From an uncultured archaeon (GTDB taxonomy: Archaea > Iainarchaeota > Iainarchaeia > Iainarchaeales > JAAZKV01), in the NCBI GenBank assembly GCA_964461205.1, contig CAYWUL010000004.1, forward strand, positions 1 to 63,845: 63,845 nucleotides of DNA, in the 5' to 3' direction. The translations under genes and the position numbers were made by a program. Below the pieces are notes generated by a model, which ran no database searches, was not told where the DNA came from, and worked only from the letters and a program-made list of their open reading frames with translations. This document shows positions 38,351 to 59,923 of the stretch, in pieces; the first letter of the stretch is position 1, and every line of letters starts with the position of its first letter.

Positions 38351-39004
38351 CTAACCGATTATTGAAGCAAACATTAATGTTATACTTGCAAGAATTAGAA
38401 TTCCTATCATCAACATTTGAGACATATCAAGGTCGGCTATTCTTAGAATAAATACTGCAAGAGCAACTATCAATAATATTGCTCCAAAACCAAGCATTGT
38501 GTAAGAAAAAAACATTGATTTTTTTCTGAACTTGTGAACCTTTAATTGTTCAATATCAAGATCCATTTGGGTCATTCTTTCATTAATAGAATCAAGAGCA
38601 ATTTTTACCATTGAAACTGTTCTTTGTGATGTCCCAATAATTTTGTCTACTCTTTCTTCAAAAGATTTTGATTCTTTTATTACTTGTTCTTTTGCTTCGC
38701 CAAGTTCAGCAGTAGCAAGTTCTCTTACTCTTCCTTTTTCTTCTTGTTCAATTGCTTCTAAATCTTTGTGAATTATTTCTTCAAACACTTTTCTTTGTTC
38801 TTGGAATTCATCTTTTACAAGAGCATTAACTTCTTTTTTTAACAAAGTAAAAGTATCGGCTTCTGCAATTAATAATAATTTTTTTGCTTGTTCATCTTCA
38901 ACGCCAAGGTCATGCAATGTTGCAACAATCTTTTCTCTTGGTTGTCCTTCTTGCACCATTTTTTGTATTACTTCAATTATTGATTCTTCGCCCATTCCAA
39001 TCAA
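38351..39004 (-). CDS. coiled-coil protein with two C-terminal TM helices
   Basis: 217 aa. It is the last gene of the minus-strand triplet headed by the KaiC-like gene and overlaps the upstream gene by 4 nt. Confidence 0.45.
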   Translation of the reverse strand: MIGMGEESIIEVIQKMVQEGQPREKIVATLHDLGVEDEQAKKLLLIAEADTFTLLKKEVNALVKDEFQEQRKVFEEIIHKDLEAIEQEEKGRVRELATAELGEAKEQVIKESKSFEERVDKIIGTSQRTVSMVKIALDSINERMTQMDLDIEQLKVHKFRKKSMFFSYTMLGFGAILLIVALAVFILRIADLDMSQMLMIGILILASITLMFASIIG

Positions 39005-39690
39005 CTCGTAATTGTTATAGTATGAGAATAATTTTGTTCCAATTTTCCAACACGCAAAACAAATTTCATCTTCGCCATACCTGGATTAATAGGTGTCAAA
39101 GTAGAATTTAAATTTTTGCAATCGTTTACTCCAAGAGAAACTGTCCTTGGAAAGAAAGGTTCTTCAAAATAACTTCCCTCAACACTCTCAATCCAATAAA
39201 CTTCAAACAAATCACTTTCAGAAACATTACACAAACGAACAATCATATCATACTTGTTTCCAACAGTCATAGAACTTGTTAATTGTACTTCCGCAGTAAC
39301 AGGCCGGACTGTTGTTTCATCTAACTCAAAATGTAAATGTACCGGGCGATTAAAAGAAGATGTAATATACACTTCATATTGAAGGTTTTCTGAAAATGGG
39401 ATTTCTGTAGTAAATTCTACTCGATCATTCGCACTTATACTTTGAACAACGGCAACTCTTTCTTCATTATTCATTACAACTTTTACTTGAGCATCATCAA
39501 TACTATGGTTTGAATTATTCACTATATCTGCTTTTAACAAAACTTGATCTCCAACTAATTCTAAAGAAGCATTCTCCACAGTAAGAACTTGTGTAAAAGA
39601 AATAAAATATATTAATGTGAAGAATATTATTGCAAAAACTATTATGAAAACAGGATAAACTATTTTTCTTGAAATAAACATCTTACTCAC
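39001..39690 (-). CDS. N-terminally anchored beta-rich extracytoplasmic protein
   Basis: 229 aa. It has an N-terminal TM (VYPVFIIVFAIIFFTLIYFISF) followed by two beta-rich halves. Confidence 0.45.
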   Translation of the reverse strand: MSKMFISRKIVYPVFIIVFAIIFFTLIYFISFTQVLTVENASLELVGDQVLLKADIVNNSNHSIDDAQVKVVMNNEERVAVVQSISANDRVEFTTEIPFSENLQYEVYITSSFNRPVHLHFELDETTVRPVTAEVQLTSSMTVGNKYDMIVRLCNVSESDLFEVYWIESVEGSYFEEPFFPRTVSLGVNDCKNLNSTLTPINPGMAKMKFVLRVGKLEQNYSHTITITS

Positions 39691-39728
39691 CCCTGTTTAA
39701 CCAATTATATAAATTCAACCTTTTCAAA

Positions 39729-40385
39729 TTATTCAACCTTCTCTACTTTTATAATATCATCAAAAAATTGTCCTAACCTAGGAACAAGAACATCTTTATT
39801 CAATAAATAATAACCTGCTGTTTTGTATTTATGTAATAGTCTTGTTAAAGAATAGATAAATTTTAACAATATCTTTTCTTTATGATATAATTCTAGCACA
39901 CCAAGAGAATCAAAAATAAATATTGGTTTTTTTTCTTCAATAATATTTATCATTTTTATTTGTAATTGAGTCAGGTTTCTCAAAGAATCAATAAAATGAA
40001 CTTGTGAATTGTTTTTTTCTCTTTTAATATTATTTGTTATGGGATCAATTAGAAATACCTTGGTCAAATCTATTTTTGCACCAGAAAGAAACTCTTGTGC
40101 GGTTTTATAATTCATAGAAGTAAGAATTATTGCAGGAGTTCTGTTTTCTTTTAAAATACATTTTACCATCGCAATAATAACATCCTTATTGTTTATTGCA
40201 TCACAATGGATAAGAGTTTGGCCTTCAGCACATAAACCAATTTGTTTTGTTAATTGAGAAAAAATATTAGTTTCCCTAGAAAGCATTTCTTGTAAAGAAT
40301 CGAACTTTTTTGTCTCCTCTTCAATGCTTTTTGACACCCTTGTTTTGTCTGAGAGAATCGCTTCTACCTCTTCAATGCCCGCCAT
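39729..40385 (-). CDS. KaiC/ArlH-like RecA-fold protein lacking Walker A
   Basis: It retains a Walker B-like PIFIFDSLGVLELY and the KaiC-like layout. The P-loop position reads CDAINNKD. It is a paralog of 58235-58777. Confidence 0.5.
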   Translation of the reverse strand: MAGIEEVEAILSDKTRVSKSIEEETKKFDSLQEMLSRETNIFSQLTKQIGLCAEGQTLIHCDAINNKDVIIAMVKCILKENRTPAIILTSMNYKTAQEFLSGAKIDLTKVFLIDPITNNIKREKNNSQVHFIDSLRNLTQLQIKMINIIEEKKPIFIFDSLGVLELYHKEKILLKFIYSLTRLLHKYKTAGYYLLNKDVLVPRLGQFFDDIIKVEKVE

Positions 40386-40520
40386 AACTTACATATAACA
40401 TAAGTCATTATTAAATGTAATTAACAATAAAAAAACAGTATTTTTTTACTCAAGGACAAGTTATTAAACAAGAAAGAACTAATTATAAAAGTCTGCAAAA
40501 CAAAAAATTGGGTGCTTTTC

Positions 40521-43500
40521 ATGGTCTCAGACAAGGAAACTAAGAACGAAATGGCTTTTCTAGAAGATTTGAAGAAATTACAGAACGCAAACTCTGGTGG
40601 CGAACAAAAAAATTCCTTTGAAAAACTAAAGGAAATTTCAAAAAACAAAGTTAAAACAGAGCAAACAACACAAGGTAGCAAGATAGAAATGAATGAAATA
40701 AAAAAAATTGTTCCAGAACAAAGAATTGAAAAAATAGAAGAAAAACCAATTATTTTTGAAAAAAAAGAAATCGTACAAGAGACAGGTAACAAAAAAAATA
40801 TCATAAATGAAAAGAATGCAGTAATTAGAGAACCTGAAAAAGAATTAGAATTAAAAAGCGATTTTTTTACAAGAAAAGAGAAACCAATAGAACAAAAGTT
40901 TTCTTGGGAAAACAAAGAAAACATCGATATGCCAAGAGAAGAAGATTTTGAAGAAATCAGAACAATAAATGAAGAGACACCAATAGGAAATACTTACAAA
41001 GAATTACAAAGACAAAGAAACACAATGAGTTTTGATTGGGAAGAAAGAGCAAAAATTGATATGCCAAGAGAAGAAGATTTTTCGCCAACACACTTGGATT
41101 GGATGAAAAAAGAAATTAACCCAAAAACAGAATTGAGTGACAAAAAAGAAAGAGACGAAACAGAATTTCCATGGGAAGTAAATCAAAAAATAGGTGTCCC
41201 CACAAGAGAAGATTTTATTAATTCTTTAAAACAAGATGAAGAAATAAAAAAGGATTTTAGCTCAAGTGTTTCAGAAAATTTTGATTGGATGAAACACGAA
41301 ATAATTGATGCGCCAAAAAAAGACGATTTTACTATTGAAGAACCAACTGGCAATATGCTAAATAAAGAAATAGAAAAGCAACAAGGAATCGCAGATAACA
41401 AAATACAAAGCACAAATGTTTTGGAGAACAAAAAAATAGAAAATGAAAAAATTGAAAACAAAGAAAATATTACAACTAAAAAAGAGGAACTGCCAGGAAC
41501 AGGACCAAGATGGAAAACAACAAAATCAATTGAACCAAAAGAAGAAATTAAAGCAGAGTTTAAACCAAGCGGAGAAGAAAAAATAAAAGGACCAAAATGG
41601 TTTCATAAAAAAACAAACGATAATGCAATCCCAAAGCAAACGGAAGAACAAAAAGTTGGAGAAACAAAAATAGAAGAAAAAGTTGTTCTTGAAAAAAAAG
41701 AAACCTTGGAAAAAAATAAACCTTCTGAAGGCGGAGCAAGATGGAAACACACCACAATCTCAACTCCTGACGAGAAAAAAGTTGAAGGAAAAGCACAAAC
41801 AATTGTTGAAAACAAAACAAAAGAAGAACAAGCAAGTGTAACAAAAACAAGCGAGAAAGAAAATCAAAAAATAGAAAGTACTGTTGGAAAAACCAAAGTT
41901 GTTGATTCAGGACCGAGATGGAAAACAACAGGAACAGAAGATACTGAAACAAAAAAAGCATCTCATTTAAAGACACCAATCGATGGAATGTTTGAAATAC
42001 TAGAAAAATATAAGTCGGCAGATACAGAACAACTTGGAAAAGTTGTTAACATGAGTAGTTATGATGTTGAACAAATAATGAAGGATTTTGAAGATTATGA
42101 TATTGTAAAAATAAAGTATCCAACAAGCTTGAAGAAAAAACCAAGAGTTATCCTAAAAAAAGTTATTGAACCAAGAGTAAGAAAAGCACCAGTCGGAGAG
42201 ATATTAGATTCTTATAAATTAGAAGTCGACGATGTCCCTGCGGAAGTAGAAATTATTTTGTCAAAAGATGAGGCAAGACCATTATACACTATTAAGATGC
42301 CTGCGATAGGACCATACACAAAAAAGTTTTTAGAATTTTTAAAGAATGAAATCGCAGAAAACATTCCTGTTGAACTAGAAGAAATAATGGATCCAAAAAA
42401 ATCAAAACATTTGAAAGATAGGTTTTTTGAAGAATCACAAAAACACTTGATAAAATATTTCCCACAAAGCTCAAAAGAAATGCTAAACACTTTGAGTGGA
42501 GTAATACTACACGAAATGTATGGTTTGGGGGACATAGAAGTTATTCTTGGAGATGATATGCTAGAAGAAGTAGCAATTAATTCTGCAAAAACCCCAATAA
42601 CAGTTTACCATAGAATTCATGGTTGGTTAAAAACAAATTTGTATCCAGGAACAGAAACAGAAATCATGAATTATTCTTCACAAATTGGAAGAAAAGTTGG
42701 AAGAGAAATAACTACCTTGAGTCCAATACTTGATGCACACCTACTTTCAGGAGATCGTGTTAATGCTACACTGTTCCCTATCTCCTCCGAAGGAAACACA
42801 CTTACAATAAGACGGTTTGCGAGAAAACCATGGACACTTGTAGATTTTATTGGAAAAGCACACACAATGTCAAGCGAAATGGCAGCATTCTTGTGGCTAG
42901 CAATACAATTCGAAATGAATGTAATTGTTTCTGGAGGAACTGCTTCTGGAAAAACATCAACATTAAACACATTACTTTCACTTGTTCCTTCTTACCATAG
43001 ATTAATTTCTATTGAAGATGTAAGAGAAATTGTCTTGCCTGTTTATTTGAAATGGAATTGGATACCAATGGTAACAAGGTCAGCTAATCCAGAAGGACTA
43101 GGAGAAGTAACAATGCTTGACTGTATGATTTCAAGTTTGAGAATGAGACCTGACAGAATAATAGTTGGAGAAATAAGAAGAAAGAGAGAAGCAGAAGTAT
43201 TAATGGAAGCAATCGAAACAGGACACAGTATTTATTCAACAATACACGCTAACTCAGCATACCAAGTATTGAGAAGACTAGGAGAAGCACCAATGAGTAT
43301 TCCAGTAATGCAAATAGAACAATTAGATATAATTGTTGTTCAATTCCGTGACAGAAAAACAAACAAAAGAAGAACATATGAAATAGCAGAAATAGAACAA
43401 ACAAGCACTGGAAAAGGATTACAAGTAAATACTATTTTCAAGTGGGTTCCAAGAACAGACACATGGGAACAATTAAACAAACCAACAAAAATATTAACAT

Positions 43501-43709
43501 TATTGAATATGCACACCGGCTTAACAGAAGCAGAAATATATAAAGAACTAGATAAGAGAAAAGCTATTTTAGAATGGATGTTGGAACAAAATATTTCTGA
43601 TTTGGATATGATCGGTTACGTTGTAAAACTTTTCTACACTGACCCGACAAGAGTAGACAAAATGGCAAAAGACAAAGTGAACGCGGATAAAATCAAAGAG
43701 ATGATGTAA
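40521..43709 (+). CDS. type IV filament assembly ATPase (ArlI/PilB/GspE family) with ~490-aa N-terminal repeat extension
   Basis: The C-terminal ~560 aa carry Walker A (SGGTASGKTS), RPDRIIVGEIR and GHSIYSTIHANSA. The N-terminus is K/E-rich with four F-x-W-E..I-D-x-P-R-E-E-D-F repeats and four G-P/A-R/K-W-K/F repeats. A GTG at 40512 is an alternative start. Confidence 0.85.
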   Translation: MVSDKETKNEMAFLEDLKKLQNANSGGEQKNSFEKLKEISKNKVKTEQTTQGSKIEMNEIKKIVPEQRIEKIEEKPIIFEKKEIVQETGNKKNIINEKNAVIREPEKELELKSDFFTRKEKPIEQKFSWENKENIDMPREEDFEEIRTINEETPIGNTYKELQRQRNTMSFDWEERAKIDMPREEDFSPTHLDWMKKEINPKTELSDKKERDETEFPWEVNQKIGVPTREDFINSLKQDEEIKKDFSSSVSENFDWMKHEIIDAPKKDDFTIEEPTGNMLNKEIEKQQGIADNKIQSTNVLENKKIENEKIENKENITTKKEELPGTGPRWKTTKSIEPKEEIKAEFKPSGEEKIKGPKWFHKKTNDNAIPKQTEEQKVGETKIEEKVVLEKKETLEKNKPSEGGARWKHTTISTPDEKKVEGKAQTIVENKTKEEQASVTKTSEKENQKIESTVGKTKVVDSGPRWKTTGTEDTETKKASHLKTPIDGMFEILEKYKSADTEQLGKVVNMSSYDVEQIMKDFEDYDIVKIKYPTSLKKKPRVILKKVIEPRVRKAPVGEILDSYKLEVDDVPAEVEIILSKDEARPLYTIKMPAIGPYTKKFLEFLKNEIAENIPVELEEIMDPKKSKHLKDRFFEESQKHLIKYFPQSSKEMLNTLSGVILHEMYGLGDIEVILGDDMLEEVAINSAKTPITVYHRIHGWLKTNLYPGTETEIMNYSSQIGRKVGREITTLSPILDAHLLSGDRVNATLFPISSEGNTLTIRRFARKPWTLVDFIGKAHTMSSEMAAFLWLAIQFEMNVIVSGGTASGKTSTLNTLLSLVPSYHRLISIEDVREIVLPVYLKWNWIPMVTRSANPEGLGEVTMLDCMISSLRMRPDRIIVGEIRRKREAEVLMEAIETGHSIYSTIHANSAYQVLRRLGEAPMSIPVMQIEQLDIIVVQFRDRKTNKRRTYEIAEIEQTSTGKGLQVNTIFKWVPRTDTWEQLNKPTKILTLLNMHTGLTEAEIYKELDKRKAILEWMLEQNISDLDMIGYVVKLFYTDPTRVDKMAKDKVNADKIKEMM

Positions 43710-44605
43710 TGCAAGAAAAAAACCCAGTAATGATGTTGTTTCCACTAGAAAAAGCAAGGCATTTTAGTGATAAATATTTGTTTATTGGAAGAACATTATC
43801 AAAAATAATTTTCTCTCTTGAATATGATTTAAAAAATGCTGAAATAAAAATTGACGCAGAAAACTATTCACTCGCATCATTTATATCAGCCATAATTTAT
43901 GGAATATTATTTTTATTTGTCGGATTAGCATTCGGAGTTCTCATTGCAAAAGGATTTAACGCAACAACAATTATCATAACTATTGCAATTGGCATATTTG
44001 CTTTTTTAGGAGCACTAATTTTTCACTTATTGTACCCAAAAATACAAGCAATGCAATTAGCAAAAATGGTTGACCAAGAATTATTATTTGCATTAAGAAC
44101 TTTACTAATACAACTTAGTTCTGGAATAAGTTTGTTTGAAGCAATGAGATCTATTTCAAGGTCAAACTATGGGCAAGTTTCCGCAGAATTTGCAGAAGTT
44201 GTAAGAGATATTAACTCTGGAAAAAGTGAAACAACCGCTTTAGAAAAACTTGCATTCAGAACAAAATCCGATGTCCTAAAAAAAACTATTTGGCAAATAA
44301 TTACAACAATGAAATCTGGAGGATCAATTGCCAGCGCACTACAATCACAAATAGAAGAATTAGTCGCACAACAATCTGAAACAATAAAAAAATATGCAGC
44401 AGAACTAAATTTGTGGACATTAGTATACCTCATTATTGCAGCAGCAATGCCATCATTAGGAGTAACTTTCTTAGTAATAGCGTCTTCAATAGGTAGTTCA
44501 GGAATAGGAAAAGAAGCAGTAATATTAATCGCCGTGTTAGCAATGGTTATACAAGGAGCATTAATCTTTGTAATAAAAATGCAAGTTCCAAAGGTGATAA
44601 AATAA
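43709..44605 (+). CDS. type IV filament platform protein (TadB/C, ArlJ/PilC-like; one T2SSF domain)
   Basis: It has the T2SSF-type segment LLFALRTLLIQLSSGISLFEAMRSIS...SETTALEKLA plus 4 TM. Its ATG shares a base with the ATPase stop (TAATG). Confidence 0.8.
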   Translation: MQEKNPVMMLFPLEKARHFSDKYLFIGRTLSKIIFSLEYDLKNAEIKIDAENYSLASFISAIIYGILFLFVGLAFGVLIAKGFNATTIIITIAIGIFAFLGALIFHLLYPKIQAMQLAKMVDQELLFALRTLLIQLSSGISLFEAMRSISRSNYGQVSAEFAEVVRDINSGKSETTALEKLAFRTKSDVLKKTIWQIITTMKSGGSIASALQSQIEELVAQQSETIKKYAAELNLWTLVYLIIAAAMPSLGVTFLVIASSIGSSGIGKEAVILIAVLAMVIQGALIFVIKMQVPKVIK

Positions 44606-44742
44606 ATACTAGACAACTAGCATCAGTAGCGTCATTACTTGTTCCAAGAAAATTATTAGAAGGACCAATTTCTAACTGGTTAAAATATGCAGGATCACAC
44701 GATGACGAAAGAATATGGGCAGGAACAAGAGTATTCCTTTCT

Positions 44743-45654
44743 TTGTTAGTTGCAACAATAGGTTTTTTGATTCCATTCAGTGTTTTTCCAATATTAAATA
44801 TTTTCTTTGGTTATGAATTATACTTTGAACCCTTAATACAATTAGGAATAATGCTTGTATTAGCAGTGCTTGGTTTCTTTGCAACACTCGCACTTTTTTA
44901 TTTACACATCAATTATGTTATTGATGGAAGAAAAAAAATGGTTGAAGCAATATTGCCAGATTTTTTATTCTTGGTTGGAAACAATTTGAAAAGTGGAATG
45001 ACTCCATTCTATGCTTTTCGTTCAGCAGTAAGACCAGAATTTGGTCCACTAAGTGAAGAAATACAATTAGCAACAAAAAAGAGTTTAGGAATAGGATCTT
45101 TTGCTGACGCCCTAAAAGAAATCGCAGACAGAATTGATTCAAAAATTTTGAAAGACACAACAAAATTCTTTGCACATGCATTAAGATCTGGAGGAAGGCT
45201 AGCACAATTAATTGAAACAAGTGCTAATGATATAAAACAAACCAACCAATTAAAGAGAGACTTAGTTAATTCAACAAGAATGTATGTGTTGTTCATTGTG
45301 TTTGTTGTAATAATTGCATCACCAATGTTATTAGCAGTAAGTGTACAATTCCTAAATATTCTTAGTTCAATACAAACCGAAACTACTAATTTAAGCGGGG
45401 TCGGTAATGAAGATATTTCAAATCAAGTAGGTTTGGCAGGAGGACAAATAAGTATTGAACCAGAATTCATGCAATTCATGGGATACATCTTAATCATAAG
45501 TAACTCCGTCCTCGCCAGCATATTTGTCGGAGTCCTCAGTGGCGGCAAGATAAGAGACGGTTTAAAGTTTGCACCAGTATTATGCATTGTTGGCTTAATT
45601 TTATTCAGTATAATCGTTGAAGCAGTTGGATTATTAATTGGCGGAGCAATATAA
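44743..45654 (+). CDS. second T2SSF-domain platform protein (5' end unresolved)
   Basis: It has the T2SSF segment LPDFLFLVGNNLKSGMTPFYAFRSAV...SFADALKEIADR. The frame is open back past 44606 and encodes a plausible N-terminus (LASVASLLVPRKLLEGPISNWLKYAG), but without ATG/GTG/TTG. Confidence 0.8.
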   Translation: MLVATIGFLIPFSVFPILNIFFGYELYFEPLIQLGIMLVLAVLGFFATLALFYLHINYVIDGRKKMVEAILPDFLFLVGNNLKSGMTPFYAFRSAVRPEFGPLSEEIQLATKKSLGIGSFADALKEIADRIDSKILKDTTKFFAHALRSGGRLAQLIETSANDIKQTNQLKRDLVNSTRMYVLFIVFVVIIASPMLLAVSVQFLNILSSIQTETTNLSGVGNEDISNQVGLAGGQISIEPEFMQFMGYILIISNSVLASIFVGVLSGGKIRDGLKFAPVLCIVGLILFSIIVEAVGLLIGGAI

Positions 45655-45693
45655 ATAAACCCAATTTAACTCGTTTTAAACAACGAAAAGCTT

Positions 45694-45744
45694 TTTAAAT
45701 ACAAAAACCCTTAATCTTGCAATATTTATTCAATTAAAAGGAGG
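45694..45744 (+). promoter_or_regulatory. TATA-like box (tttaaata) and GGAGG Shine-Dalgarno upstream of pilin gene 1
   Basis: tttaaata lies at 45694-45701 and GGAGG at 45740-45744, with 9 nt between GGAGG and the ATG at 45754. The TTTAAATA motif recurs upstream of other genes in the window. Confidence 0.35.
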
Positions 45745-45753
45745 GAAAAAATC

Positions 45754-46209
45754 ATGTTTAGAAAAAGGGGACAAGGAACAATCGAATACCTAGTAATAAT
45801 AGCAATCGTTGTTGTTATTGCGTTAGTGGTTGTAGGTTTATTGTTGCAAGTAATGGACCAAGGATCAGGCATTCCAGAAGCAACAGCAAAAACAGCATGG
45901 AAATCTGCTCAACCTTGGGCAATAACAGACTGGGACCAAAACACTACAGCCCTGGCACTTGTACTAAAAAATAATTCGTATGAGTCAATGGAACTGGAAG
46001 ATGTACATGTTAATGGAACCGCAGCAGTTTTTGAAGACTTCAATGTCTCGTCTGGAGCAACATCAACAGTATATGTTGCATTAACAGCTACAACGGCAGG
46101 AGACAAATACTCTTACGCAAAAGCCAACATATATATAACATATAATACAGCAAACATTAACGGAAAAAACCAATATGCATTAGCTGATATCGTAGGAACA
46201 GTCAGTTAG
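45754..46209 (+). CDS. archaeal type IV pilin (class III signal peptide, Q+1 type)
   Basis: The N-terminus is MFRKRGQGTIEYLVIIAIVVVIALVVVGLL: a positively charged n-region, G/A|Q, E at +5 and a hydrophobic helix. Length is 151 aa. Confidence 0.75.
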   Translation: MFRKRGQGTIEYLVIIAIVVVIALVVVGLLLQVMDQGSGIPEATAKTAWKSAQPWAITDWDQNTTALALVLKNNSYESMELEDVHVNGTAAVFEDFNVSSGATSTVYVALTATTAGDKYSYAKANIYITYNTANINGKNQYALADIVGTVS

Positions 46210-46322: not shown

Positions 46323-46769
46323 ATGTTTAATAAAAAAGCACAAGGAACAATCGAATACCTAGTAATAATAGCAATCGTTGTTGTTATTGCGTTGGTGGTT
46401 GTTGGAATACTTATACAATTGTTAGGACAAGGTGCGGGCATAAACGAAACAAATTCTAAAATTGCTTGGCAATCAGCAGAACCATGGGCAATAACAGACT
46501 GGGACCACAATGGAACACAACTAACAATAGTATTACAAAACAATACTGCAAAAACAATGGATTTTGTTTCTATCACAGTGAATGGGGATGCTAATAATGA
46601 TTCTGGACAAACAGGAGTATCACCAAACACAAAAATTACTAGAACAATTCAAAAAGCATGTACAAGTGGAACAAAATATTCTTATTCAACAGTAACAATT
46701 GATTATAATTCTGAAGACATATCTGGAAAACAACAAACAGGAATTGCGGATATAATTGGGACTTGTTAA
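46323..46769 (+). CDS. archaeal type IV pilin paralog
   Basis: The N-terminus is MFNKKAQGTIEYLVIIAIVVVIALVVVGIL. Nucleotides 46341-46402 match 45772-45833 at 61 of 62 positions. A conserved PWAITDWD block follows. Confidence 0.75.
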   Translation: MFNKKAQGTIEYLVIIAIVVVIALVVVGILIQLLGQGAGINETNSKIAWQSAEPWAITDWDHNGTQLTIVLQNNTAKTMDFVSITVNGDANNDSGQTGVSPNTKITRTIQKACTSGTKYSYSTVTIDYNSEDISGKQQTGIADIIGTC

Positions 46770-52100: not shown

Positions 52101-54415
52101 GCATCACCGCCACTCCAATTTTCAAAATCAGTATTACCCATAAGGTGATTTCCTAAAAAACTAACAACTGTTCCATTAACATATGTAGTTGCATTAATAC
52201 CTTGCGTGTTTTGTACAAACCCACTATTCAAAATATAATCTGTGTTATTAAGGGACATTAAAGTATTGTCAGAAGAATCTGCTTTTACCCAATAAGAAAT
52301 ACTCCTAATATTTCCAACATCTCCCAAAGCAACATAATCACTATCCCCATCCAAACTTAAAGCATTTGAATCCCACATCCCTTTTGCAGAAATATTTGCG
52401 GTTCCAACAAGAGTTCCATCATACCCCCTTGCAGAATCATAAATTCCTATGTCACCATTTGTATCATTAAACTTATAATACGCAACAAGATTTTCATCCA
52501 ACCAGTCTTGTTTTTTAGATTCATATAAATCAAAAACTTCCGCACTGCTCAAAACTCTATTCCATATTCCAACTTCTTCTATAATCCCATCATATAAATA
52601 ATCGGGAGTTGTTGAAGCATGATAAGCCCCGCCAATAGTAACGGGAGAGACTTTATCAGGAATTTGTGTTGGAACTGTTCCATTTGATGTATATGTTGTA
52701 GCTACTTCCTCTCCATCAATATAAATATGAAAAGATTCATCTGCATCCCAAGTACCAGTAATTAAAGCCCATCGATTTAGCGGAATTGCTGAGTTAGTTT
52801 TTACTCTTTCCCAATAAGAATTATTCGATTGATTATAAATAAGAAAATCCAAAACATTGCTTGTAGAAACTCGGAGTAAAAAGCCTCTGTTTGAATCAGT
52901 TACTTCATAACCTCCAATTATTACCCCTGAATTGGGGTCACTTAATCCATCTGTGTAAACCCAAACACTCAAAGTTAGTTCTGTTGATCCACCTATTTCT
53001 TCAATGTTTCCAAAATTCACATAATCGTTTAAACCATCAAAAGTATAACTATTTGTATTCCATAATCCAGTTATCCCTTGTGTAGCACTCGTAACCGTTC
53101 CATCATAACCATTGCCTGAACTATCAATAGCATCTCCGCTAGATTCGTTTAAATGCCACAAAACTACTAAATTAGAATCAAACAAATAGTTTGTAGAATC
53201 CATCTCTCCAATCTCTCTTGAATTTTGATTCCAATCCAACTCACCAGTAGCAGTCCAAGAATTCGCATTAGTTATACTAGCAGAAGAAGAAATTTGTCGA
53301 ACAAAACCATTATAATCAAAAAAATGATTCAAATCAGAATTAGTGATAGAAAAGAATGTTGGATAGGAATAAGTGCATAAATTTTCGTCAGATGTTTCTG
53401 TTGCAGTAAATAATAAGTTAATGTCTGCTGTTGCTGTTAAACCACCAGCAAAAACATTTAATGTTCCAATATAATTTCCATTAGTGTCAGAAGCATTAAT
53501 GTCAAGAGATAATTGTTTACAAGAACTAGCAGGAATTGCTCCTGAAAAATTTGTGAAAGCATAAGAATTAATTGTTGATGATGTTGAGGAAGAAGAAGAC
53601 GCAAAATTTGTTCGCGTATTATTACACACTAAGAAAGTTGATGTTCCAGATTCACTAACTGCAAGAGAAATGTTTTTAGAAGAAGGATTTATTACTAAAT
53701 TACTTTGACCCTTACCACAAGTAATTGTTGCAGGAAGAGAAACATTTACATCACCTTCAAAAGTAACTGTTCCACTATAAGAACCAGTTGCACTAGAAGC
53801 ACAAGAAGCAATAAAAGGAATTGTTTCTTGTTCTCCATCAGTAAATTCTATTGTTGTATCTTGACTTGTAGATGTAAGAGTTGCTAGTGTATGAGAAAAA
53901 GAAATTCTTAAAGAATAATTTTTTGTTGTTGTTGCAATATTTGTTGCTTTCAAATTTATTTGTAAAGAAGAACCCTGGTTTACAGTTGGATTAATTGTTA
54001 CTGGGTCAAAAGAAAGTAAGTCGGAAGAAATAGAAACAAAGTCACCGTGAGAAGTAAGAGTAAAAACAATTGTCCCATCACTATTAGGCCATAACCCTCT
54101 AACAGTAGCATTTGTTGTTGCAACAAAATCAGTGTTGTAAATATTTAAGACGAGTGATTGATCTTGAATATAAGATTTTGTATAATCAATTCCTCTCGGC
54201 ATTGTTACAATAACTTCTTTTGTAGAACCAATACCTAAAAAATAAACATCATTTATTTCTTTTTTCAATGTTTCTAAAGCAAGAGAACCAATTTTGTGTT
54301 GTTGTTGAATGTTTTGGGTCTCCATTTGGTTCCAAACAATCGCCACAAAAGAAATCAGAATAAACATTGCTGTCGCGAAAATAATAATTGTTTCTATCGA
54401 TGCTTGCCCTCTCAT
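49136..54415 (-). CDS. giant pilin-like adhesin: class III signal peptide, Ig-like repeats, 3 LamG-type lectin modules, CBM-like module, 3 C1q/TNF-like repeats
   Basis: 1759 aa. The N-terminus is MRGQASIETIIIFATAMFILISF. LamG-type signatures (L-V-x-L/Y-W/Y-H/K-L/F-N...D-S-S/A-G-N/R-G-Y/F-D-G...F-D-G-x-N/S-D-Y-V...W-V/I-K) occur three times. GNTDFENWSGGDATSW is CBM-like. The C-terminal ~430 aa are three ~140-aa repeats. Confidence 0.8.
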   Translation of the reverse strand: MRGQASIETIIIFATAMFILISFVAIVWNQMETQNIQQQHKIGSLALETLKKEINDVYFLGIGSTKEVIVTMPRGIDYTKSYIQDQSLVLNIYNTDFVATTNATVRGLWPNSDGTIVFTLTSHGDFVSISSDLLSFDPVTINPTVNQGSSLQINLKATNIATTTKNYSLRISFSHTLATLTSTSQDTTIEFTDGEQETIPFIASCASSATGSYSGTVTFEGDVNVSLPATITCGKGQSNLVINPSSKNISLAVSESGTSTFLVCNNTRTNFASSSSSTSSTINSYAFTNFSGAIPASSCKQLSLDINASDTNGNYIGTLNVFAGGLTATADINLLFTATETSDENLCTYSYPTFFSITNSDLNHFFDYNGFVRQISSSASITNANSWTATGELDWNQNSREIGEMDSTNYLFDSNLVVLWHLNESSGDAIDSSGNGYDGTVTSATQGITGLWNTNSYTFDGLNDYVNFGNIEEIGGSTELTLSVWVYTDGLSDPNSGVIIGGYEVTDSNRGFLLRVSTSNVLDFLIYNQSNNSYWERVKTNSAIPLNRWALITGTWDADESFHIYIDGEEVATTYTSNGTVPTQIPDKVSPVTIGGAYHASTTPDYLYDGIIEEVGIWNRVLSSAEVFDLYESKKQDWLDENLVAYYKFNDTNGDIGIYDSARGYDGTLVGTANISAKGMWDSNALSLDGDSDYVALGDVGNIRSISYWVKADSSDNTLMSLNNTDYILNSGFVQNTQGINATTYVNGTVVSFLGNHLMGNTDFENWSGGDATSWIDNKGDSAQESSEVYYGSYSNKFTKDTSATWGQGYQDISITANKKYYISSWIKNANATELRIFCQDTGDWGTSGYITSNSTAWTEIQSVCYTDSSNPYRVSIQVYASDSSAKYGYFDLYQFREILEPIPSDEWVHVAIILSEDISASDLNIGRWKTKYFEGEIDEVKIYDRALTADEVEADYNSFLEAKFVSSPDSIVDSNNVSADWNSIKVNNDVNYSFGKEICGNVDTCNTDQFNNGLVGLWHLNAEDDVTDFEDSSGNGYDGSSQNFDNDENVSCLWGTNCYDFDGSNDYIETGYDDDFALNQSMTIMAWIKPASYAVGGYNGIVSTVPEKGTYDPIVELMLGDGQCDPLEIEVQVRASNNSTTYNLCSLNTVPLSEWSQVIYLYNGDNDDLNIYINGVRDTGRTVGDITQLNMSGYPFAIGARNVRGVIQNYFDGAIEEVVVWERALSSEEILDLYRKGVSRLDLNVYSCSDENCNTKTSEYYISGINNNTDYSISSLSSSQYLGYDILFKQNTDFSDRNAGFFNVGAFLRDVNATYSVTGVCPEEPEIPAISPLVTIVGLTTDQYLTASTLTKVAFDYVRKDSMDAFDTENNEFVVPTTGKYEIFLQATVNNLTTNKNWDVRLYKYDGSTETMIARGYTYLDAGSYRAEFASNIYDLNAGDTVYVKVQTTDSSRYVLGLSNWTYMSIRQLSEGTFVGASAYATSTLSIPASTWTQCAFDTESFDPQGDFDLDNNWYVVPEEGYYITNAGIQLQDLPDGKRQYIALYKSTDGVETGLAFKENSLGGTTWPTQTVVDLSYFSAEDKILSKVYHNNTSALNLSTGSATVFLSVRKVLESPVVAARVHMSADQSIKFATNTTIPFDVVDFDTHDAWDTTDYSYTAPVDGNYLIYVVQRYLNISVNKWIQSRIDKNVDGVNVETRNQRIVVGGATLHPSSATYGRFELNAGDKIGFVTQQYDSTTDTLYSPASGTHAFIIREGN
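53253..53342. repeat. 90-nt segment 88/90 identical to 56967-57056 (inside the two giant genes)
   Basis: Compared by eye, with two mismatches. It encodes NSDLNHFFDYNGFVRQI(S/F)SSASITNANSW. Confidence 0.85.
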
Positions 54416-54538
54416 ATCAACACCATCTTACCCAGTCATAATAAAGAATTTTGTAGTATAAAATCATTTCTTAATCAAAGAAAACAACAAAAAAAAGACT
54501 TGCCAAACAAAAACAACAGACACAAAGAAAACTATTTA

Positions 54539-57500
54539 TTATTCAGTATAATAAACAACATTTACATCCCTTAACAAAGAACCAACATTAAAAAACCCAG
54601 CATTATAATCACTAAAATCAGAATTTTGTTTGAAGAAAAAATCATAACCCAAATAACGAGAATTAACCAAATCAGAATTCAAATCCATCCAAGAATTATT
54701 ATTAGTGTCAGAAATATACTGCGAAGACGTCTTAATCACACAACTAGCATCACCACAAGAATAAACATTCAAATCTAAACTAGAAACACCCTTTCGATAT
54801 AAATCAAGAATCTCTTCTGTAGACAAAGCACGATCCCAAATAGCAACTTCATCTATTCTGCCGCTTCCACCAGAATAAGAAGTCCCACGATACCCATGCA
54901 AAGTTAATGCAGTTGCATTATCCCAAGAAGTAGTTGAATTGTCTGTTCCCGAATCCAACAACAACCCATTAAAGTATACTTTCATTGAACCACTTGCCTC
55001 ACGAGTTATAACTATGTGGTTCCAACTCAAAGCATAATTAACTCCAGTTGAAGTATAATTATACCATCCTTCAGTTTGACAGCCACAATAAATTTGTAAA
55101 TCCCCATCTGCTTGGAGCAAAACATAATTTGCTAAATCATTACCAGTTCCACACCCATCATTAGTACTTTTATCAAAAATAAATTGAACACTTCCAAAAT
55201 CGACATTAAACCAAGCACTTACTGAATAATCCCCAGTCTTTTTTATAGGAGACAAATCTCCAAAATTAATATAGTCATTAGTCCCATCAAAATCAAACGC
55301 ATTTGTCCCCCATAATCCTGAAACATTTTCATCATTATCAAAATTTTGTGGAGAACCCCCATTATCATTCCCACTATAATCTTTGAATGCATTATCAGCA
55401 TCTCCCGCATTCAAATGCCACAACCCAACTAAATTATTATCCATAAATTTATCTCTACCTAATCTGTAAAGATCTGTTATTTCTTGAGGAGTTAATCCCC
55501 TATCCCACACTGCAACTTCATCAATTTTTCCAGTAACATAATTTGTTACATTTCCAGTTCTACCAATTGCAGGATATTCTGTATCCGCATCTATTGAACC
55601 ACTCACGCCAGTCTGCTCAGCAACTTTTATTGCATCAACATATAACTCAACAGCACTACCATTATACGTTCCACAAATATGGTGCCATAAACCATCAGCA
55701 TCAATTGACTCTGTGCTTTGAGCAATTTTTGCAGAACCCCCAATAAAAATTAAAAATGCTGGAGCAGAAGGAGTAACAGCCCTATTCAAATAAAGATCAA
55801 AATTTCTATTTGTCCCATCATCACTAGTAAATAATCCTTGAGAAGTTACGCTACTATCGGAATTCACCCAAGTACAAACACTCATTTGTGCTAAACCAGT
55901 TAATGCACTTTGTCCTGTTGCACCAGTATCAAGCCAATCATTTGTAGCTAGATCAACACAATTTGTTCCCCACAAACAAGAAACATTCTCATCATCATCA
56001 AAACCATTTGGAGTTAATGTTAAACCATTCCCACTCGCATCTTCATATGCTGTATTTTCACCCATATTCAAATGCCATAATGCAATTAAATTCTCATCAA
56101 ACAAATAATGTGCACTTGTTAATTCTCCAGTACCATAACCAATTTCTGAGTTAAAATTATAATTCAAATCACTATTAACTTTTATTTGATTCCAATCCGC
56201 TGTTGCAGTAGCATCAACAATTGATTCAGGAGAAGAAACAAACTTTGCATTCAAAAAAGAATTATAATCTGCAATAACTTCTTTTGTTGTTAGTATTCTG
56301 TTATAAAATTTTACTTCATCTATTTCTCCTTTAAAATACCACCCACTATATTGTTGTCTTCCAATATATGTTCGTGTGTTATCCGTTGAAGTTATTGAAC
56401 CATAAGTTGCAACTGAAGAAAATGTCTTACTGAATCCATCAACAGTAAATGTTGCATCATCTCCAGAACCATCCCAACTTACAACCACATGGTGCCATTG
56501 CCCATCATTAACAATAAAACCACTATCAATTCTTTCGTTATCTGCATCCCCTGCATCCCCAACATACAACGCCACTTCCCCTGTACTTCGCACTCTTATA
56601 TAATATCCATTTGCACTCGCATCAATATATGACCAAGTGGGTTGGTCAGTAGCAGAACTTGTTTTAATCCAATGACTTACTGTAAAATCTCCCGTTCCAA
56701 CATCAAAAACAGTTGTATTGGGCAAATCAACATAATCGTTTATTCCATCTAAAATTAATGCATTAGAATCCCACATCCCTTTCAAATTGTTTTCATCAAT
56801 ATCCGCACCATTTACCAACGCGCCATCAAACCCTCTTGCAGAATCATATACCCCTGTTCCATCAGAATTAGTATCATTAAACTTATAATACGCAACAAGA
56901 TTCTGGTCACGCCAAGCATTATTATCTAACACAGCATTCCTATTCCAATCTAATTCTCCTGTTGGAGTCCAAGAATTCGCATTAGTTATACTAGCAGAAG
57001 AAAAAATTTGCCGAACAAAACCATTATAATCAAAAAAATGATTCAAATCAGAATTATCAATAGAAAAATAAGTTGAGCCAGGAACAGTGTATCCACCCGC
57101 GGGAGGTTCTGATTCAACAGAATTTGTAACTCTAATAAAAGAAGTATAATTATCATCTCCAGAAATTGCCGTAAGGTTTGCATCATAAATTGCAGAAGAA
57201 AGAGTTGGAATAACAATATTCATATCAAAGTTAGAACAAGAATTTGCATTAACATCAGTAATTAAAGGAAGAGTAAACCACGAAGCAGCATTAGCATCAA
57301 CATTACCATCTTTTCCCCAAGTAATATTTTCGATTAAAGAAACTGTTTTGTTACAAATAGAATAACTCTTTGTATAAGTTTCATCACCAAGAGAAGAAAT
57401 ACTTGTTAAGCGAGGATAAATTACTAGGTTACTAAATTCTGAAGCAACTTCAACAGAAACAGAAATTGTTTTTGTAATTGTTTCCCCACTAATAACAGAA

Positions 57501-58159
57501 GAAGCAACTATTCTTCCAGCATAATTTCCATTAGCATAAGGTTGTGTTGTAAAAGAAGCTGTAACAATTGTTGTTGCGCCAGGATCAAGAACAACTTCTG
57601 AATCACTAAGAGACATTGTCGCATCGGTGTGAGAAAAAGTTGGTGTTAAAGAAACAGTTATTTGTTCTGCATAATTATTTCTAACAGAAAAAGTTTCTTG
57701 TGTAGAAGAACCTTGTAAGATAGAAACAAAGATTGATTGTTTGTTTAATTCAAATTCTCTATAACGAATATTAACTGTGTCTCCGTTAAAATCAAGATAC
57801 ATATAATAACGTCCAGGAGTTGTTTTGAAAGAGCCACTCATTGGGATTTCTGTAAAAGCAATTACGTCAGTTCCGTTTGCTAAACGCAAAGAAACAGTTG
57901 AACTTTCAAAACCACTATTAGCAATATCAATACTTTCCGGAACTTCAATAAAAATTCTTATTTCAGAATCAATCCCGGATAAATAAGCCGTGTTTGCAGC
58001 ATTCGCAATTGTTTGCACAGTGTTTCTTGCTATTACCATATCTTGTGTTTCTCTTGTTGCCGAGACCTGCTCAGCATAGATAGCAAAGATTATTGCTAGC
58101 GCAACAACCGAAACTGATAACACTAATAACAACTCAATAGTTGTTTGACCTTTTTGCAT
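54539..58159 (-). CDS. giant pilin-like adhesin paralog: class III signal peptide, Ig-like repeats, 3 LamG-type modules
   Basis: 1206 aa. The N-terminus is MQKGQTTIELLLVLSVSVVALAIIFAIY. LamG-type signatures begin at LVAYYKFNDTNSDG, LIALWHLNMGEN and LVGLWHLNAGDAD. It shares the C-terminal module ...DLNVYSC...FFNVG.LLRDVN with the 1759-aa protein. Confidence 0.8.
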   Translation of the reverse strand: MQKGQTTIELLLVLSVSVVALAIIFAIYAEQVSATRETQDMVIARNTVQTIANAANTAYLSGIDSEIRIFIEVPESIDIANSGFESSTVSLRLANGTDVIAFTEIPMSGSFKTTPGRYYMYLDFNGDTVNIRYREFELNKQSIFVSILQGSSTQETFSVRNNYAEQITVSLTPTFSHTDATMSLSDSEVVLDPGATTIVTASFTTQPYANGNYAGRIVASSVISGETITKTISVSVEVASEFSNLVIYPRLTSISSLGDETYTKSYSICNKTVSLIENITWGKDGNVDANAASWFTLPLITDVNANSCSNFDMNIVIPTLSSAIYDANLTAISGDDNYTSFIRVTNSVESEPPAGGYTVPGSTYFSIDNSDLNHFFDYNGFVRQIFSSASITNANSWTPTGELDWNRNAVLDNNAWRDQNLVAYYKFNDTNSDGTGVYDSARGFDGALVNGADIDENNLKGMWDSNALILDGINDYVDLPNTTVFDVGTGDFTVSHWIKTSSATDQPTWSYIDASANGYYIRVRSTGEVALYVGDAGDADNERIDSGFIVNDGQWHHVVVSWDGSGDDATFTVDGFSKTFSSVATYGSITSTDNTRTYIGRQQYSGWYFKGEIDEVKFYNRILTTKEVIADYNSFLNAKFVSSPESIVDATATADWNQIKVNSDLNYNFNSEIGYGTGELTSAHYLFDENLIALWHLNMGENTAYEDASGNGLTLTPNGFDDDENVSCLWGTNCVDLATNDWLDTGATGQSALTGLAQMSVCTWVNSDSSVTSQGLFTSDDGTNRNFDLYLNRAVTPSAPAFLIFIGGSAKIAQSTESIDADGLWHHICGTYNGSAVELYVDAIKVAEQTGVSGSIDADTEYPAIGRTGNVTNYVTGKIDEVAVWDRGLTPQEITDLYRLGRDKFMDNNLVGLWHLNAGDADNAFKDYSGNDNGGSPQNFDNDENVSGLWGTNAFDFDGTNDYINFGDLSPIKKTGDYSVSAWFNVDFGSVQFIFDKSTNDGCGTGNDLANYVLLQADGDLQIYCGCQTEGWYNYTSTGVNYALSWNHIVITREASGSMKVYFNGLLLDSGTDNSTTSWDNATALTLHGYRGTSYSGGSGRIDEVAIWDRALSTEEILDLYRKGVSSLDLNVYSCGDASCVIKTSSQYISDTNNNSWMDLNSDLVNSRYLGYDFFFKQNSDFSDYNAGFFNVGSLLRDVNVVYYTE
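56967..57056. repeat. partner copy of the 53253-53342 segment
   Basis: See the 53253-53342 entry. Confidence 0.85.
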
Positions 58160-58234
58160 GTGTAAATTAGGTTAAATGGATATTTATTATTAGCGCTAAG
58201 CAAGGTTTTTATTGTGTAAAGGTGTTTGTTAACT

Positions 58235-58777
58235 ATGGCAAACAATTTTTTGAAAGAAGTCATTGCAAATACAACAAACAAGGTTAACCTAGTAATAATT
58301 AATCAAAAACAATTCAAAACATCAATTGATTATTTACTAGAAAAATTGTTATTAGAACAGAAAAACGAGATCATCTTGGTTTCTTTTTCTCAACCAGGAA
58401 AAGAAATATTGAACAAATTTAATAGTCCAAAACTACATATTATTGATGCTTTTTCAGAGGAAGAAGAAAACGAAAAAATTATTTATTTAAAGGCGGGCAA
58501 TTTAACAAAACTACAAATAGAGATTGATGAATTAATGAAAGAAAAATCAATTGTTATTTTTGATTCCTTAGGTGTGCTCGGTTTGTATAATTCTGCACAA
58601 GATGTTGGAAAATTTGTTTACTTTTTTAGTAACAAAATAAAACTTAATAATAATTCGTGTATTTTTGTTGTTGTAAAAGAAAGTATTGATGAAGAAACAC
58701 TTAACTTTGCAAAACAATTCTGTGACAGAACATATAATTTTTCAGAATTATTTGTTTCTATAGAAGAAACAACATAA
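58235..58777 (+). CDS. KaiC/ArlH-like RecA-fold protein lacking Walker A (paralog of 39729-40385)
   Basis: It has a Walker B-like SIVIFDSLGVLGLY, the same IFDSLGVL.LY block as the other copy. The P-loop position reads SFSQPGKE. Confidence 0.45.
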   Translation: MANNFLKEVIANTTNKVNLVIINQKQFKTSIDYLLEKLLLEQKNEIILVSFSQPGKEILNKFNSPKLHIIDAFSEEEENEKIIYLKAGNLTKLQIEIDELMKEKSIVIFDSLGVLGLYNSAQDVGKFVYFFSNKIKLNNNSCIFVVVKESIDEETLNFAKQFCDRTYNFSELFVSIEETT

Positions 58778-58819
58778 AAACAAAATAAATTTGTTTTTTC
58801 AAAAAAACTAATTGAAAAA

Positions 58820-59923
58820 TTAGAATACTTCTACATCAGGATAAACTACTAATCCTTTCTTCTCAAAATTAATTGCACATAACTTGTTAGTGTGTTTTGT
58901 TCCGCGCATTTTTACTATTTCTAAGGAATGAATACGCAGACCTTTTTCCTCATCATGGTGGTAATACATTGATATTACAGAATCACTAATGAATGCAATA
59001 CTTCCTTCTGTGTCCTCTAATTTTTCTGGAGAATCTTCAGCAATTACTACTGATGTTATACCCCACTTTGCTAGCAAATTAAAAAAATTTAATACTTCTT
59101 CTCTTCTCTTGTATTCATCATGGAATAACAAACCATATGCAGTAATAGAATCAATCACAACTCTCTTCGCACCAATTTCTGTAAGAGCATCTCTTATTTG
59201 GCCTCCCCCTTCTTCCAAAATCTTTGTTACTTGGTGTGGCTTGAAATATAATAACATGAATTTTTTATCCTCTTCTAGTTTTTTGAAATCCCAACCAAAC
59301 TGTAACGCATGCTTGTACAAAGAATCTCTCTCTTCTTCAAAAGAAATAAAGATTCCAGGCTCATTATATTTTGTTACTCCTTCATAAAGAAATTGCATTC
59401 CAAGAAGAGTTTTTCCTGTACCTGCAGAACCAACCAATAAAATAATTGAATCCCTTTCAAATCCGCCAGAAATAAGTTCATCAAAACCCTTTATTCCCGT
59501 AGGAACTCTATTAGAAACTTTTTCTTCAACACTTAAATCATCATTTTTTTCTTCAATATTCTCTTCTTTTTTTTCAACAGTATTTTCTTCAATGGATTCA
59601 TCTTTCTTTGGTTCCATTTTTTCAACAACATTTTCTTTTTCTTTAGTCACATTATCCTTTTCTTCTATAACATTATCTCCCGGTTCCATTTTTTCAACAA
59701 CATTTTCTTCTTTAGGCATAGACTCTTCTTTAATAGAAATAGAATTATCTTTCTCTTCAATCGGTTTAATGACAACCGCCGTATTGTCTTCTTCAAAAGA
59801 ATCAGAATTCCTTTCAGAAACCTTTACAACATCTTCTTCCTTTTTCTCTTTTTTTGGGTTATCCATTAAGATTACCGGTTCTTCTTCTTTTGGTTCAAAT
59901 ACTTGTTCGTCCATTATTACCAC
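58820..59923 (-). CDS. KaiC/RAD55-family ATPase with E/K-rich repeat N-terminal extension
   Basis: The C-terminal 230 aa carry GIKGFDELISGGFERDSIILLVGSAGTGKT (Walker A), VVIDSITA (Walker B) and SLEIVKMRGTKH. The N-terminal ~135 aa contain repeated ENVVEKMEP units. Confidence 0.8.
   Translation of the reverse strand: MVIMDEQVFEPKEEEPVILMDNPKKEKKEEDVVKVSERNSDSFEEDNTAVVIKPIEEKDNSISIKEESMPKEENVVEKMEPGDNVIEEKDNVTKEKENVVEKMEPKKDESIEENTVEKKEENIEEKNDDLSVEEKVSNRVPTGIKGFDELISGGFERDSIILLVGSAGTGKTLLGMQFLYEGVTKYNEPGIFISFEEERDSLYKHALQFGWDFKKLEEDKKFMLLYFKPHQVTKILEEGGGQIRDALTEIGAKRVVIDSITAYGLLFHDEYKRREEVLNFFNLLAKWGITSVVIAEDSPEKLEDTEGSIAFISDSVISMYYHHDEEKGLRIHSLEIVKMRGTKHTNKLCAINFEKKGLVVYPDVEVF

Follow-up and report, generated by a model that had tools for sequence, protein, structure and literature searches.

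A conserved locus in an uncultured Iainarchaeota archaeon encodes a predicted type IV pilus-like machine with a split platform and lectin-type adhesins

A 63,845-bp contig from an uncultured archaeon of the Iainarchaeota (GenBank assembly GCA_964461205.1, contig CAYWUL010000004.1), here analysed in its entirety and referred to as the window, carries a gene cluster at positions 38351 to 59923 that very probably encodes an archaeal surface filament resembling a type IV pilus: its assembly machine, its subunits, and lectin-type adhesins that would sit at the tip or decorate the filament. Homology gives good support to an adhesive type IV pilus: sequence comparisons identify a putative hexameric-type ATPase of the PilB/ArlI family, a platform split over two genes, two pilin-like proteins with glutamine at +1 and glutamate at +5 of the predicted cleavage site (Q+1/E+5), and six further proteins with class III-like signals. 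The original prediction, made from the letters of the window without database searches, had proposed a type IV filament locus of 16 open reading frames (ORFs). All 16 exist where they were placed, and Pfam profile searches support the T2SSE, T2SSF, Class_IIIsignal and KaiC assignments. Little is known of the means by which DPANN archaea attach to surfaces or to partners, and the locus represents a concrete, conserved candidate attachment machine for a phylum without a cultured representative. Use in host-cell contact is plausible.

Eight proteins of the cluster begin with class III-like N-termini. Five combine Q+1 with E+5, one has Q+1 alone, and two have phenylalanine at +1 (F+1). The motif type of each protein is kept in its orthologs from five related loci chosen for gene-by-gene motif comparison (L001, L002, L004, L005 and L006), and because each type is conserved in this way, the motifs are not chance occurrences. 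The Q+1 signal, of the type described by Pfam PF04021 and linked to EppA substrates, was correctly recognised at the outset as the prevailing type in the cluster. Among the contig ORFs outside the pilus cluster, no Q+1/E+5 signal was found.

Two of these proteins are candidates for the major pilin. They are encoded in tandem on the forward strand, at 45754..46209 (151 aa; KRG↓QGTIEYLVII, the arrow marking the predicted cleavage site) and 46323..46769 (a paralog; KKA↓QGTIEY), and score 29.2 and 26.0 bits, respectively, against Class_IIIsignal (PF04021; gathering score 23.7 bits). Each of the tandem pilins (151/152 aa) has a beta-rich C-terminal domain of ~110 aa, and in the first, the beta-rich globular domain that follows the signal comes with four N-glycosylation sequons. 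Their first ~30 residues, K[GA]↓QGT[IV]EYL, are near-invariant in the ortholog alignment. When a profile of the major pilins was compared with the PDB, only archaeal filament pilins were retrieved, weakly (E 0.004-0.3), these being the filament cryo-electron microscopy entries 8Q30, 8TIB, 6NAV, 8FJS and 6W8X.

The putative secretion or assembly ATPase lies upstream of the pilins on the same strand (40521..43709, +; 1062 aa), matches T2SSE in Pfam (E 2e-33) and has the Walker A motif GGTASGKT. It consists of a K/E-rich, repeat-bearing extension of ~480 aa, a winged-helix-like domain, the T2SSE core and a PilB3_C-like tail. Among PDB sequences its best match is afGspE (2OAP; 9e-69), followed by FlaI (7e-46) and CpaF (4e-40). 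In NCBIfam the best model is FlaI, with 264 bits against the FlaI/ArlI equivalog NF058587, whose cut-off is 550. The PilB3_C tail is weak in the window protein (15.9 bits) and reaches 1e-8 in orthologs. Among 27 ATPase orthologs, a MarR or helix-turn-helix domain is found in four and PilB3_C in three. The N-terminal extension (40521-41960, +) is probably disordered and contains four copies each of two motifs, F-x-W-[EM]...I/G-[DV]-x-P-[RKT]-[EK]-[ED]-D-F and G-[PA]-[RK]-W-[KF]. Its length is variable, with close homologs ranging from 620 to 1062 aa in total, and an xRWK motif is present in one homolog only.

Two genes follow that each encode a single T2SSF domain. The first (43709..44605, +; 298 aa; Pfam E 7e-18) aligns with UpsF positions 9-252 of 484, its N-terminal half, and the second (44602..45654, +; Pfam E 3.7e-13) aligns with the C-terminal half of ArlJ/UpsF. 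Since the two products map to the N- and C-terminal halves of UpsF/ArlJ, the platform is split over two genes. Start/stop coupling had been proposed for both genes and stands for the first, whose start overlaps the ATPase stop by one base (TAATG at 43709). In the second, the first canonical start is a TTG at 44743; the conserved N-terminus SLLVPRKLLEGPISNWLKYAGSHDDERIWAGTRVF is encoded upstream of it, in a region without an in-frame ATG, GTG or TTG. The most likely start is an ATA at 44602 that overlaps the upstream TAA (44603-44605; ATAA), which would yield a protein of ~350 aa, with orthologs of 346-367 aa. The ATA could reflect non-canonical, translationally coupled initiation, or a sequencing error.

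An alignment-based scan of metagenomes gathered 86 related loci. The ATPase is found together with the two half-platform genes in 62-69 of 81 related loci.

Convergent to these genes is an operon of six, running from 58159 down to 46866, in which every product starts with a class III-like signal and a hydrophobic helix, as had been predicted. The first two genes encode giant modular pilin-like adhesins that are paralogs of each other. Giant 1 (54539..58159, -; 1206 aa; KG↓QTTIE) has an Ig-like region and three LamG/pentraxin-like domains (Pfam Laminin_G_3 4.8e-71, Pentaxin 2.7e-16). Giant 2 (49136..54415, -; 1759 aa; RG↓QASIE) has three Laminin_G_3 stretches (9.8e-55) and a C1q match of 1e-5 (26.2 bits, gathering score 23.7). 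These domains agree with the giant LamG/C1q pilin-like genes of the original description. Internal repeats divide the C-terminus of giant 2 into three tandem C1q/TNF-like domains at approximately residues 1332-1470, 1488-1600 and 1616-1759, and three such copies in one chain could mimic the C1q trimer. Across relatives, the ~350-aa N-terminal module of the giants is conserved alone, and the lectin parts range from none to more than 1000 residues. A conserved N-terminal module combined with variable lectin modules is what characterises modular pilins whose adhesin parts can be exchanged, and the variable lectin ends of the six-protein set are what would be expected for partner or surface specificity.

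Two side observations concern these giants. Public gene calls place the starts of the giant LamG genes ~30 codons downstream, giving 1729 instead of 1759 aa for giant 2 (P0173) and affecting also the L002 gene at 18142-20328; as these calls remove the class III signal, automated annotation hides the pilin nature of the proteins. Further, the triple C1q array of giant 2 (49139-50458) was considered as a unique feature and rejected, given that 1464 representative public metagenome proteins, mostly large and uncharacterised, carry tandem C1q/TNF-like arrays of up to nine stretches. Such an array was found in none of the 86 related pilus loci.

The remaining four operon genes encode small, minor pilin-like proteins. 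The product of 48678..49073 (-; 131 aa; KKA↓QVSMEF) scores 17.5 bits against Class_IIIsignal, below the gathering score. That of 48156..48656 (-; 166 aa; KG↓QFFSPDL) is conserved more widely than the other minor pilins, with homologs in 20 of the 86 related loci. The next gene (47690..48175, -; NRG↓FIISSDAF) encodes at most 161 aa; its start is uncertain, and orthologs begin ~5 residues ahead of the G↓F. The last (46866..47693, -; 275 aa; KKG↓FLFTIS) has no acidic +5 residue and no family profile match for its product, and its motif [KR]G↓F[LV][FL][TS] is kept in all five comparison loci. The order of the six genes (big, big, ~130, ~165, ~150 and ~280 aa) is preserved even in a distant relative, where the operon lies upstream of the ATPase.

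We propose that the eight precursors would be inserted in the membrane and cut after the G or A that follows K/R by a peptidase encoded elsewhere. A priming or tip complex might be formed by the four small minor pilins together with the N-terminal modules (~350 aa) of the giants, and beneath it the ATPase and the split platform would polymerise the two major pilins. Polymerisation would push the LamG and C1q/TNF-like modules outward, where their ligands could be glycans or proteins, carried by a surface or by another cell. On the cytoplasmic side, a KaiC ATPase and two pseudo-ATPases may, with a helical membrane protein, regulate or scaffold the assembly ATPase in a manner comparable to ArlH, and a membrane protein with two Ig-like domains may act on the outer side of the membrane. 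Several points weigh against this adhesive pilus. Glutamate at +5 is missing from three of the eight signals, and for this lineage the filament is a prediction from genes. Prepilin processing is assumed, the peptidase being absent from the contig. The putative division into major, minor and tip subunits leans on models from bacterial type IV pili, type II secretion systems and the published clade 1 of archaeal pili, and the roles given to the KaiC trio and to the helical and two-Ig proteins are drawn solely from conserved neighbourhood and fold.

The same genes might instead build a short pseudopilus or bindosome-like stalk that presents the LamG/C1q proteins, or other binding proteins, for the capture of substrates or glycans rather than for attachment. 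Of the eight class III proteins, six differ from simple pilins, two of them having lectin-type domains, and a recent preprint proposes that binding proteins with class III signals functionalise archaeal type IV filament (TFF) machines for substrate scavenging (bioRxiv 10.64898/2026.04.22.720090). Against BasE, the bindosome model, the ATPase reaches 150 bits, which is far under the cut-off of 1000 and under its FlaI score. Further, none of the class III proteins contains a solute-binding-protein domain, and the two tandem, conserved globular pilins resemble filament-forming archaeal pilins. We consider such a display device unlikely, and favour the adhesive type IV pilus.

The closest published relatives of this pilus locus appear to be the split-platform archaeal systems, namely clade/system 1 (Epd-like) and subsystem 4A. 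In clade 1 type IV pilus loci, the ATPase is accompanied by a pair of TadC proteins, five or more minor pilins, EppA, a FleN/MinD ATPase and two large proteins of the concanavalin clan that are predicted to be tip adhesins (PMC4858521). The present locus shares with clade 1/system 1, as represented by Epd of Methanococcus maripaludis, the single ATPase, the platform split in two TadC/T2SSF genes, the Q+1 pilins, at least five further class III-signal proteins and the two large concanavalin/LamG-clan proteins. Unlike clade 1/system 1, it lacks EppA and FleN/MinD and has a KaiC trio instead. The dedicated nine-transmembrane EppA (arCOG02300), often part of clade 1 loci, was not found in the window. 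The major pilins, at 151-152 aa and with a globular domain, also differ from the ~70-aa pilins of the Epd/Flp-like kind (arCOG06620), and the giants carry Laminin_G_3 and C1q in place of the DUF2341 of clade 1 adhesins.

The ATPase differs from its clade 1/system 1 counterparts in having long N- and C-terminal extensions, a trait of system 2, whose ATPases are extended, whose platform is encoded by one gene and whose loci include large adhesins (bioRxiv 10.64898/2026.04.22.720090). The likeness to system 2 (PilB3/PilC3 of Haloferax volcanii) and to GspE of Archaeoglobus fulgidus extends to afGspE as best structure match, the PilB3_C-like tail, the extended ATPase N-terminus and the large adhesin-like proteins in the locus. 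Unlike system 2, the platform is split and the pilins are not of the PilA type, although a pair of tadC genes is also present in many loci of clade 2 (PMC4858521). The ATPase features (afGspE match, PilB3_C tail and N-terminal extension) may point towards a clade 2-like enzyme. System 1 traits, the split platform and the Q+1 pilins, thus occur here together with an ATPase architecture of the system 2 type. Split-platform TFF systems with large adhesins are already known, including from DPANN archaea (PMC4858521; bioRxiv 10.64898/2026.04.22.720090). The separation of the two systems by platform and ATPase extensions is not clean in DPANN.

The survey by Makarova et al. in 2016 did not cover DPANN (PMC4858521), and a 2019 review describes DPANN pilus islands built of 'dark matter' pilins. 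More recently, split-platform system 1 was reported in DPANN, along with some DPANN 4A loci that have two platform genes (bioRxiv 10.64898/2026.04.22.720090). The locus described here is a lineage-specific variant of a catalogued archaeal pilus machine, and not a new kind of system.

Bacterial systems offer two further points of comparison. Like the Tad/Flp apparatus, the locus has two single-domain platform proteins (TadB/TadC) and a CpaF-related ATPase (4e-40). The cleavage context of Flp pilins is G↓xxxxEY, and the signal G↓QGTIEY found here fits it. Unlike Tad/Flp, the system is archaeal, with no outer-membrane secretin and no Rcp or TadD; its pilins are globular, and its ATPase is nearer to afGspE and FlaI than to CpaF. 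The second comparison is with the concept of PilY1-type tip adhesins and with PilC of Streptococcus sanguinis, a modular type IV pilin with a grafted lectin module. Like PilC-type pilins, the giants join a pilin N-terminus to a concanavalin/LamG-type lectin module, which the filament would display. The likeness is at the level of the LamG domain: the giants are archaeal and far larger (1206 and 1759 aa), with three LamG domains each and, in one, a triple C1q/TNF array.

The accessory genes of the locus include a trio with the KaiC fold, which the original prediction had rightly divided into one intact member and two without a P-loop. The intact KaiC-type ATPase (58820..59923, -; 367 aa) is a single-domain protein (Pfam KaiC 1.8e-58, 198 bits) with a K/E-rich N-terminal extension of ~135 aa, the Walker A motif GSAGTGKT and the Walker B motif VVIDS. 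In NCBIfam it scores 158.6 bits against KaiC_arch_3 and 28.4 bits against ArlH, where the cut-off is 215. Pseudo-ATPase A (39729..40385, -; 218 aa), encoded divergently from the assembly ATPase, has no Pfam match by itself and lacks a Walker A motif, the position reading LIHCDAINNKD. Its AlphaFold model (predicted local distance difference test score 86.6) retrieves PH0284, FlaH/ArlH and KaiC in Foldseek at template modelling (TM) scores of ~0.6-0.66, with 2DR3 as the best match (E 3e-8, TM 0.66) and FlaH 4YDS second (4e-7). Pseudo-ATPase B (58226..58777, +; 183 aa) has a degenerate Walker A (SFSQPGKE) and Pfam scores that are all under their cut-offs (DUF835 31.8, KaiC 17.2 and DUF7504 16.5 bits); an ortholog occupies the same position in L002.

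Pseudo-ATPases A and B are paralogous (35% identity over 97 aa, E 1e-9). Within their family (n=7), six members match DUF7504 and four match KaiC, and weak matches to DUF835 and Elp5 also occur. When the pseudo-KaiC family was aligned with the window KaiC by hhalign, the probability was 0.65%, and a PDB profile search retrieved KaiC at E 0.5. This direct comparison being uninformative, the tie to KaiC is made through structure prediction, and 39729-40385 and 58226-58777 are classed as KaiC-fold pseudo-ATPases, not bona fide KaiC members. Beside ATPase homologs of 41-48% identity, KaiC and pseudo-KaiC genes recur in 15 and 10 loci, respectively. KaiC-family ATPases are associated with several type IV pilus clades (PMC4858521), but for split-platform systems a KaiC-based accessory set is not described in the published archaeal pilus surveys that we compared.

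On the side of pseudo-ATPase A away from the ATPase gene, and on the same strand as pseudo-ATPase A, lie two genes for membrane proteins. The first (39001..39681, -; 226 aa) encodes a bitopic protein with an N-terminal transmembrane helix and two tandem Ig-like beta-sandwiches, which are predicted to be extracellular. Its AlphaFold model (predicted local distance difference test score 87.2) matches the tandem beta-barrel domains of transglutaminases and RbmA in Foldseek, and its 20 homologs are all from Diapherotrites or unnamed metagenomes. The second (38351..38995, -) encodes a membrane-anchored helical protein of 214 aa from the ATG at 38995, also the length of the public gene call. It combines a small N-terminal helical domain, a proline-free, E/K-rich helix of ~115 aa and a C-terminal two-transmembrane hairpin. 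The hairpin was correctly predicted, and the part originally called a coiled coil is, by composition and heptad check, this long helix. Orthologs in L001, L002, L004 and L005 have 75% mean column identity and start at the Met equivalent to that of MGEES. Pfam, NCBIfam, PDB sequence and PDB profile searches with the helical protein returned no match, and a role as a cytoplasmic scaffold of the machine is predicted. The triad of pseudo-ATPase A, two-Ig and helical protein, together with a histone-fold-like gene described below, is found only in close relatives (ATPase identity at least 64%).

We speculate that the three KaiC-fold proteins might form an Elp456-like hetero-hexameric ring that docks, with the helical membrane protein, under the pilus ATPase, an arrangement that we regard as rather improbable. 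If true, a pilus other than the archaellum would possess a cytoplasmic ring of ArlH/ArlX type. The arrangement could mark a step in evolution between adhesive type IV pili and the archaellum motor, or else act as a phospho-switch through which contact with a host controls assembly.

These accessory proteins bear on whether the cluster could encode an archaellum-like rotary or motility apparatus, in which an ArlH-like ring, an ArlX-like scaffold and an ArlF/G-like stator would turn the filament. Several features speak for this: the ATPase belongs to the same superfamily and has FlaI as its best NCBIfam model, a KaiC/RecA-fold partner with FlaH/ArlH as its second-best structural match is encoded beside it, the neighbourhood holds a membrane-anchored helical protein and one with a transmembrane helix plus beta-sandwiches, and the conserved accessory triad is encoded divergently from the ATPase. 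Yet the ATPase reaches 264 of the 550 bits set for ArlI and is nearer to afGspE than to FlaI, and KaiC reaches 28 of the 215 set for ArlH. ArlH needs a Walker A site, which the ArlH-fold protein beside the ATPase does not have. Archaellin profiles matched none of the eight class III proteins, and ArlC/D/E/X profiles were also unmatched. The two-Ig protein had been a candidate ArlF/G homolog; this is unsupported, with ArlF and ArlG absent from the top 50 PDB Foldseek matches of its model, and the original prediction that archaellin and ArlF/G are missing from the locus agrees with these results. In addition, the platform is split, and the ATPase has large extensions, which are argued to be absent from rotary ATPases (bioRxiv 10.64898/2026.04.22.720090). 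The comparison with the archaellum fails every membership test run. The archaellum motor core that the locus had been said to recall is matched at the level of fold and superfamily only, and a rotary apparatus is very unlikely.

A prepilin peptidase, which the proposed pilus would need for processing as set out above, had been reported missing from the window, and every search is in line with this. The Peptidase_A24 profile found no match among the polytopic ORFs of the contig, neither GxGD nor GGAD occurs as a motif in any contig ORF, and an EppA-type ORF is absent both from the window and from the 10 kb around the ATPase in L001-L006. Individual polytopic ORFs were rejected as hidden prepilin peptidases: 33168-33809 is MscS-like, 18006-19094 is an acyltransferase, and the A24 signature is absent from 26024-26503, 60002-60445 and 19406-21775. 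Among the 86 related loci, an A24 candidate stands beside the ATPase in just three, so that in this group the peptidase is, as a rule, encoded elsewhere than at the pilus locus. The same is common in archaea, as with PibD in Sulfolobus and Haloferax, and absence of the peptidase from the locus is no sign of an unusual mechanism. The candidates (L025 7846-8637, L034 7772-8563 and L064 8143-9021) lie ~1.4 kb upstream of ATPase homologs. They are polytopic proteins of 263-292 aa with the motifs FDVK and GMWGGADF and a weak Pfam match (19.7 bits, E 1.2e-3), and may represent a divergent DPANN prepilin peptidase. A profile built from them had no match in the window.

The original prediction had called the pilus locus an island, and a mobile genomic island is rejected: the contig has ~30% G+C throughout, with no compositional break at the pilus cluster, and in the related loci L002, L004 and L005 the locus is syntenic and has the identical neighbours, namely the thermosome, a kinase-like gene and isoleucyl-tRNA synthetase. 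The cluster is a conserved core-genome locus. Its ATPase core is 72-78% identical to proteins from metagenome-assembled genomes of Candidatus Diapherotrites/Iainarchaeum, which places the organism in the Iainarchaeota, among the DPANN archaea, consistent with the reduced-genome archaeon that had been anticipated. Archaeal housekeeping genes on the contig include the thermosome, class I tRNA synthetases, pyruvate phosphate dikinase and a form III-type RuBisCO.

Type IV filaments mediate DNA uptake in many bacteria, and a competence-type or cell-to-cell transfer pilus might serve a metabolically dependent archaeon such as this one. DPANN archaea rely on partners, and the ATPase orthologs have a winged-helix-like domain. 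Against this, no ComEC-, Ced- or Ted-like channel and no DNA-binding pilin was found among the ORFs of the cluster and its flanks that were scanned, and the lectin modules indicate binding of glycans or proteins. A function in DNA transfer is highly improbable beside that of an adhesive pilus.

Elsewhere on the contig, the RuBisCO large-subunit homolog (24673-25974, -) and the pyruvate phosphate dikinase (14661-17315, -) are characteristic of the restricted carbon metabolism that has been reported in DPANN archaea. A tRNA-Ile with the anticodon UAU is encoded at 32776-32847 (-); such a tRNA implies that AUA codons are read directly rather than via a modified CAU anticodon. The PLD-like (PLDc_2) product of 9648-10247 (-) has the N-terminal sequence NKG↓SWIFLIVVIVV, which bears a loose likeness to class III signals and is probably just a membrane anchor. 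The 789-aa product of 19406-21775 (-) has an N-terminal soluble domain followed by ~13 transmembrane segments and no Pfam match; it was considered as an AglB oligosaccharyltransferase and rejected, both an STT3 match and the WWDxG motif being absent.

Immediately next to the pilus locus is a gene for a double histone-fold-like protein (37441-38283, -; 280 aa), which has an acidic N-terminus and two tandem repeats (KLPFP[RK]ATIT...) and scores only 17 bits against CBFD_NFYB_HMF in Pfam. This gene also lies directly beside the pilus locus in six related loci, with 64-75% identity.

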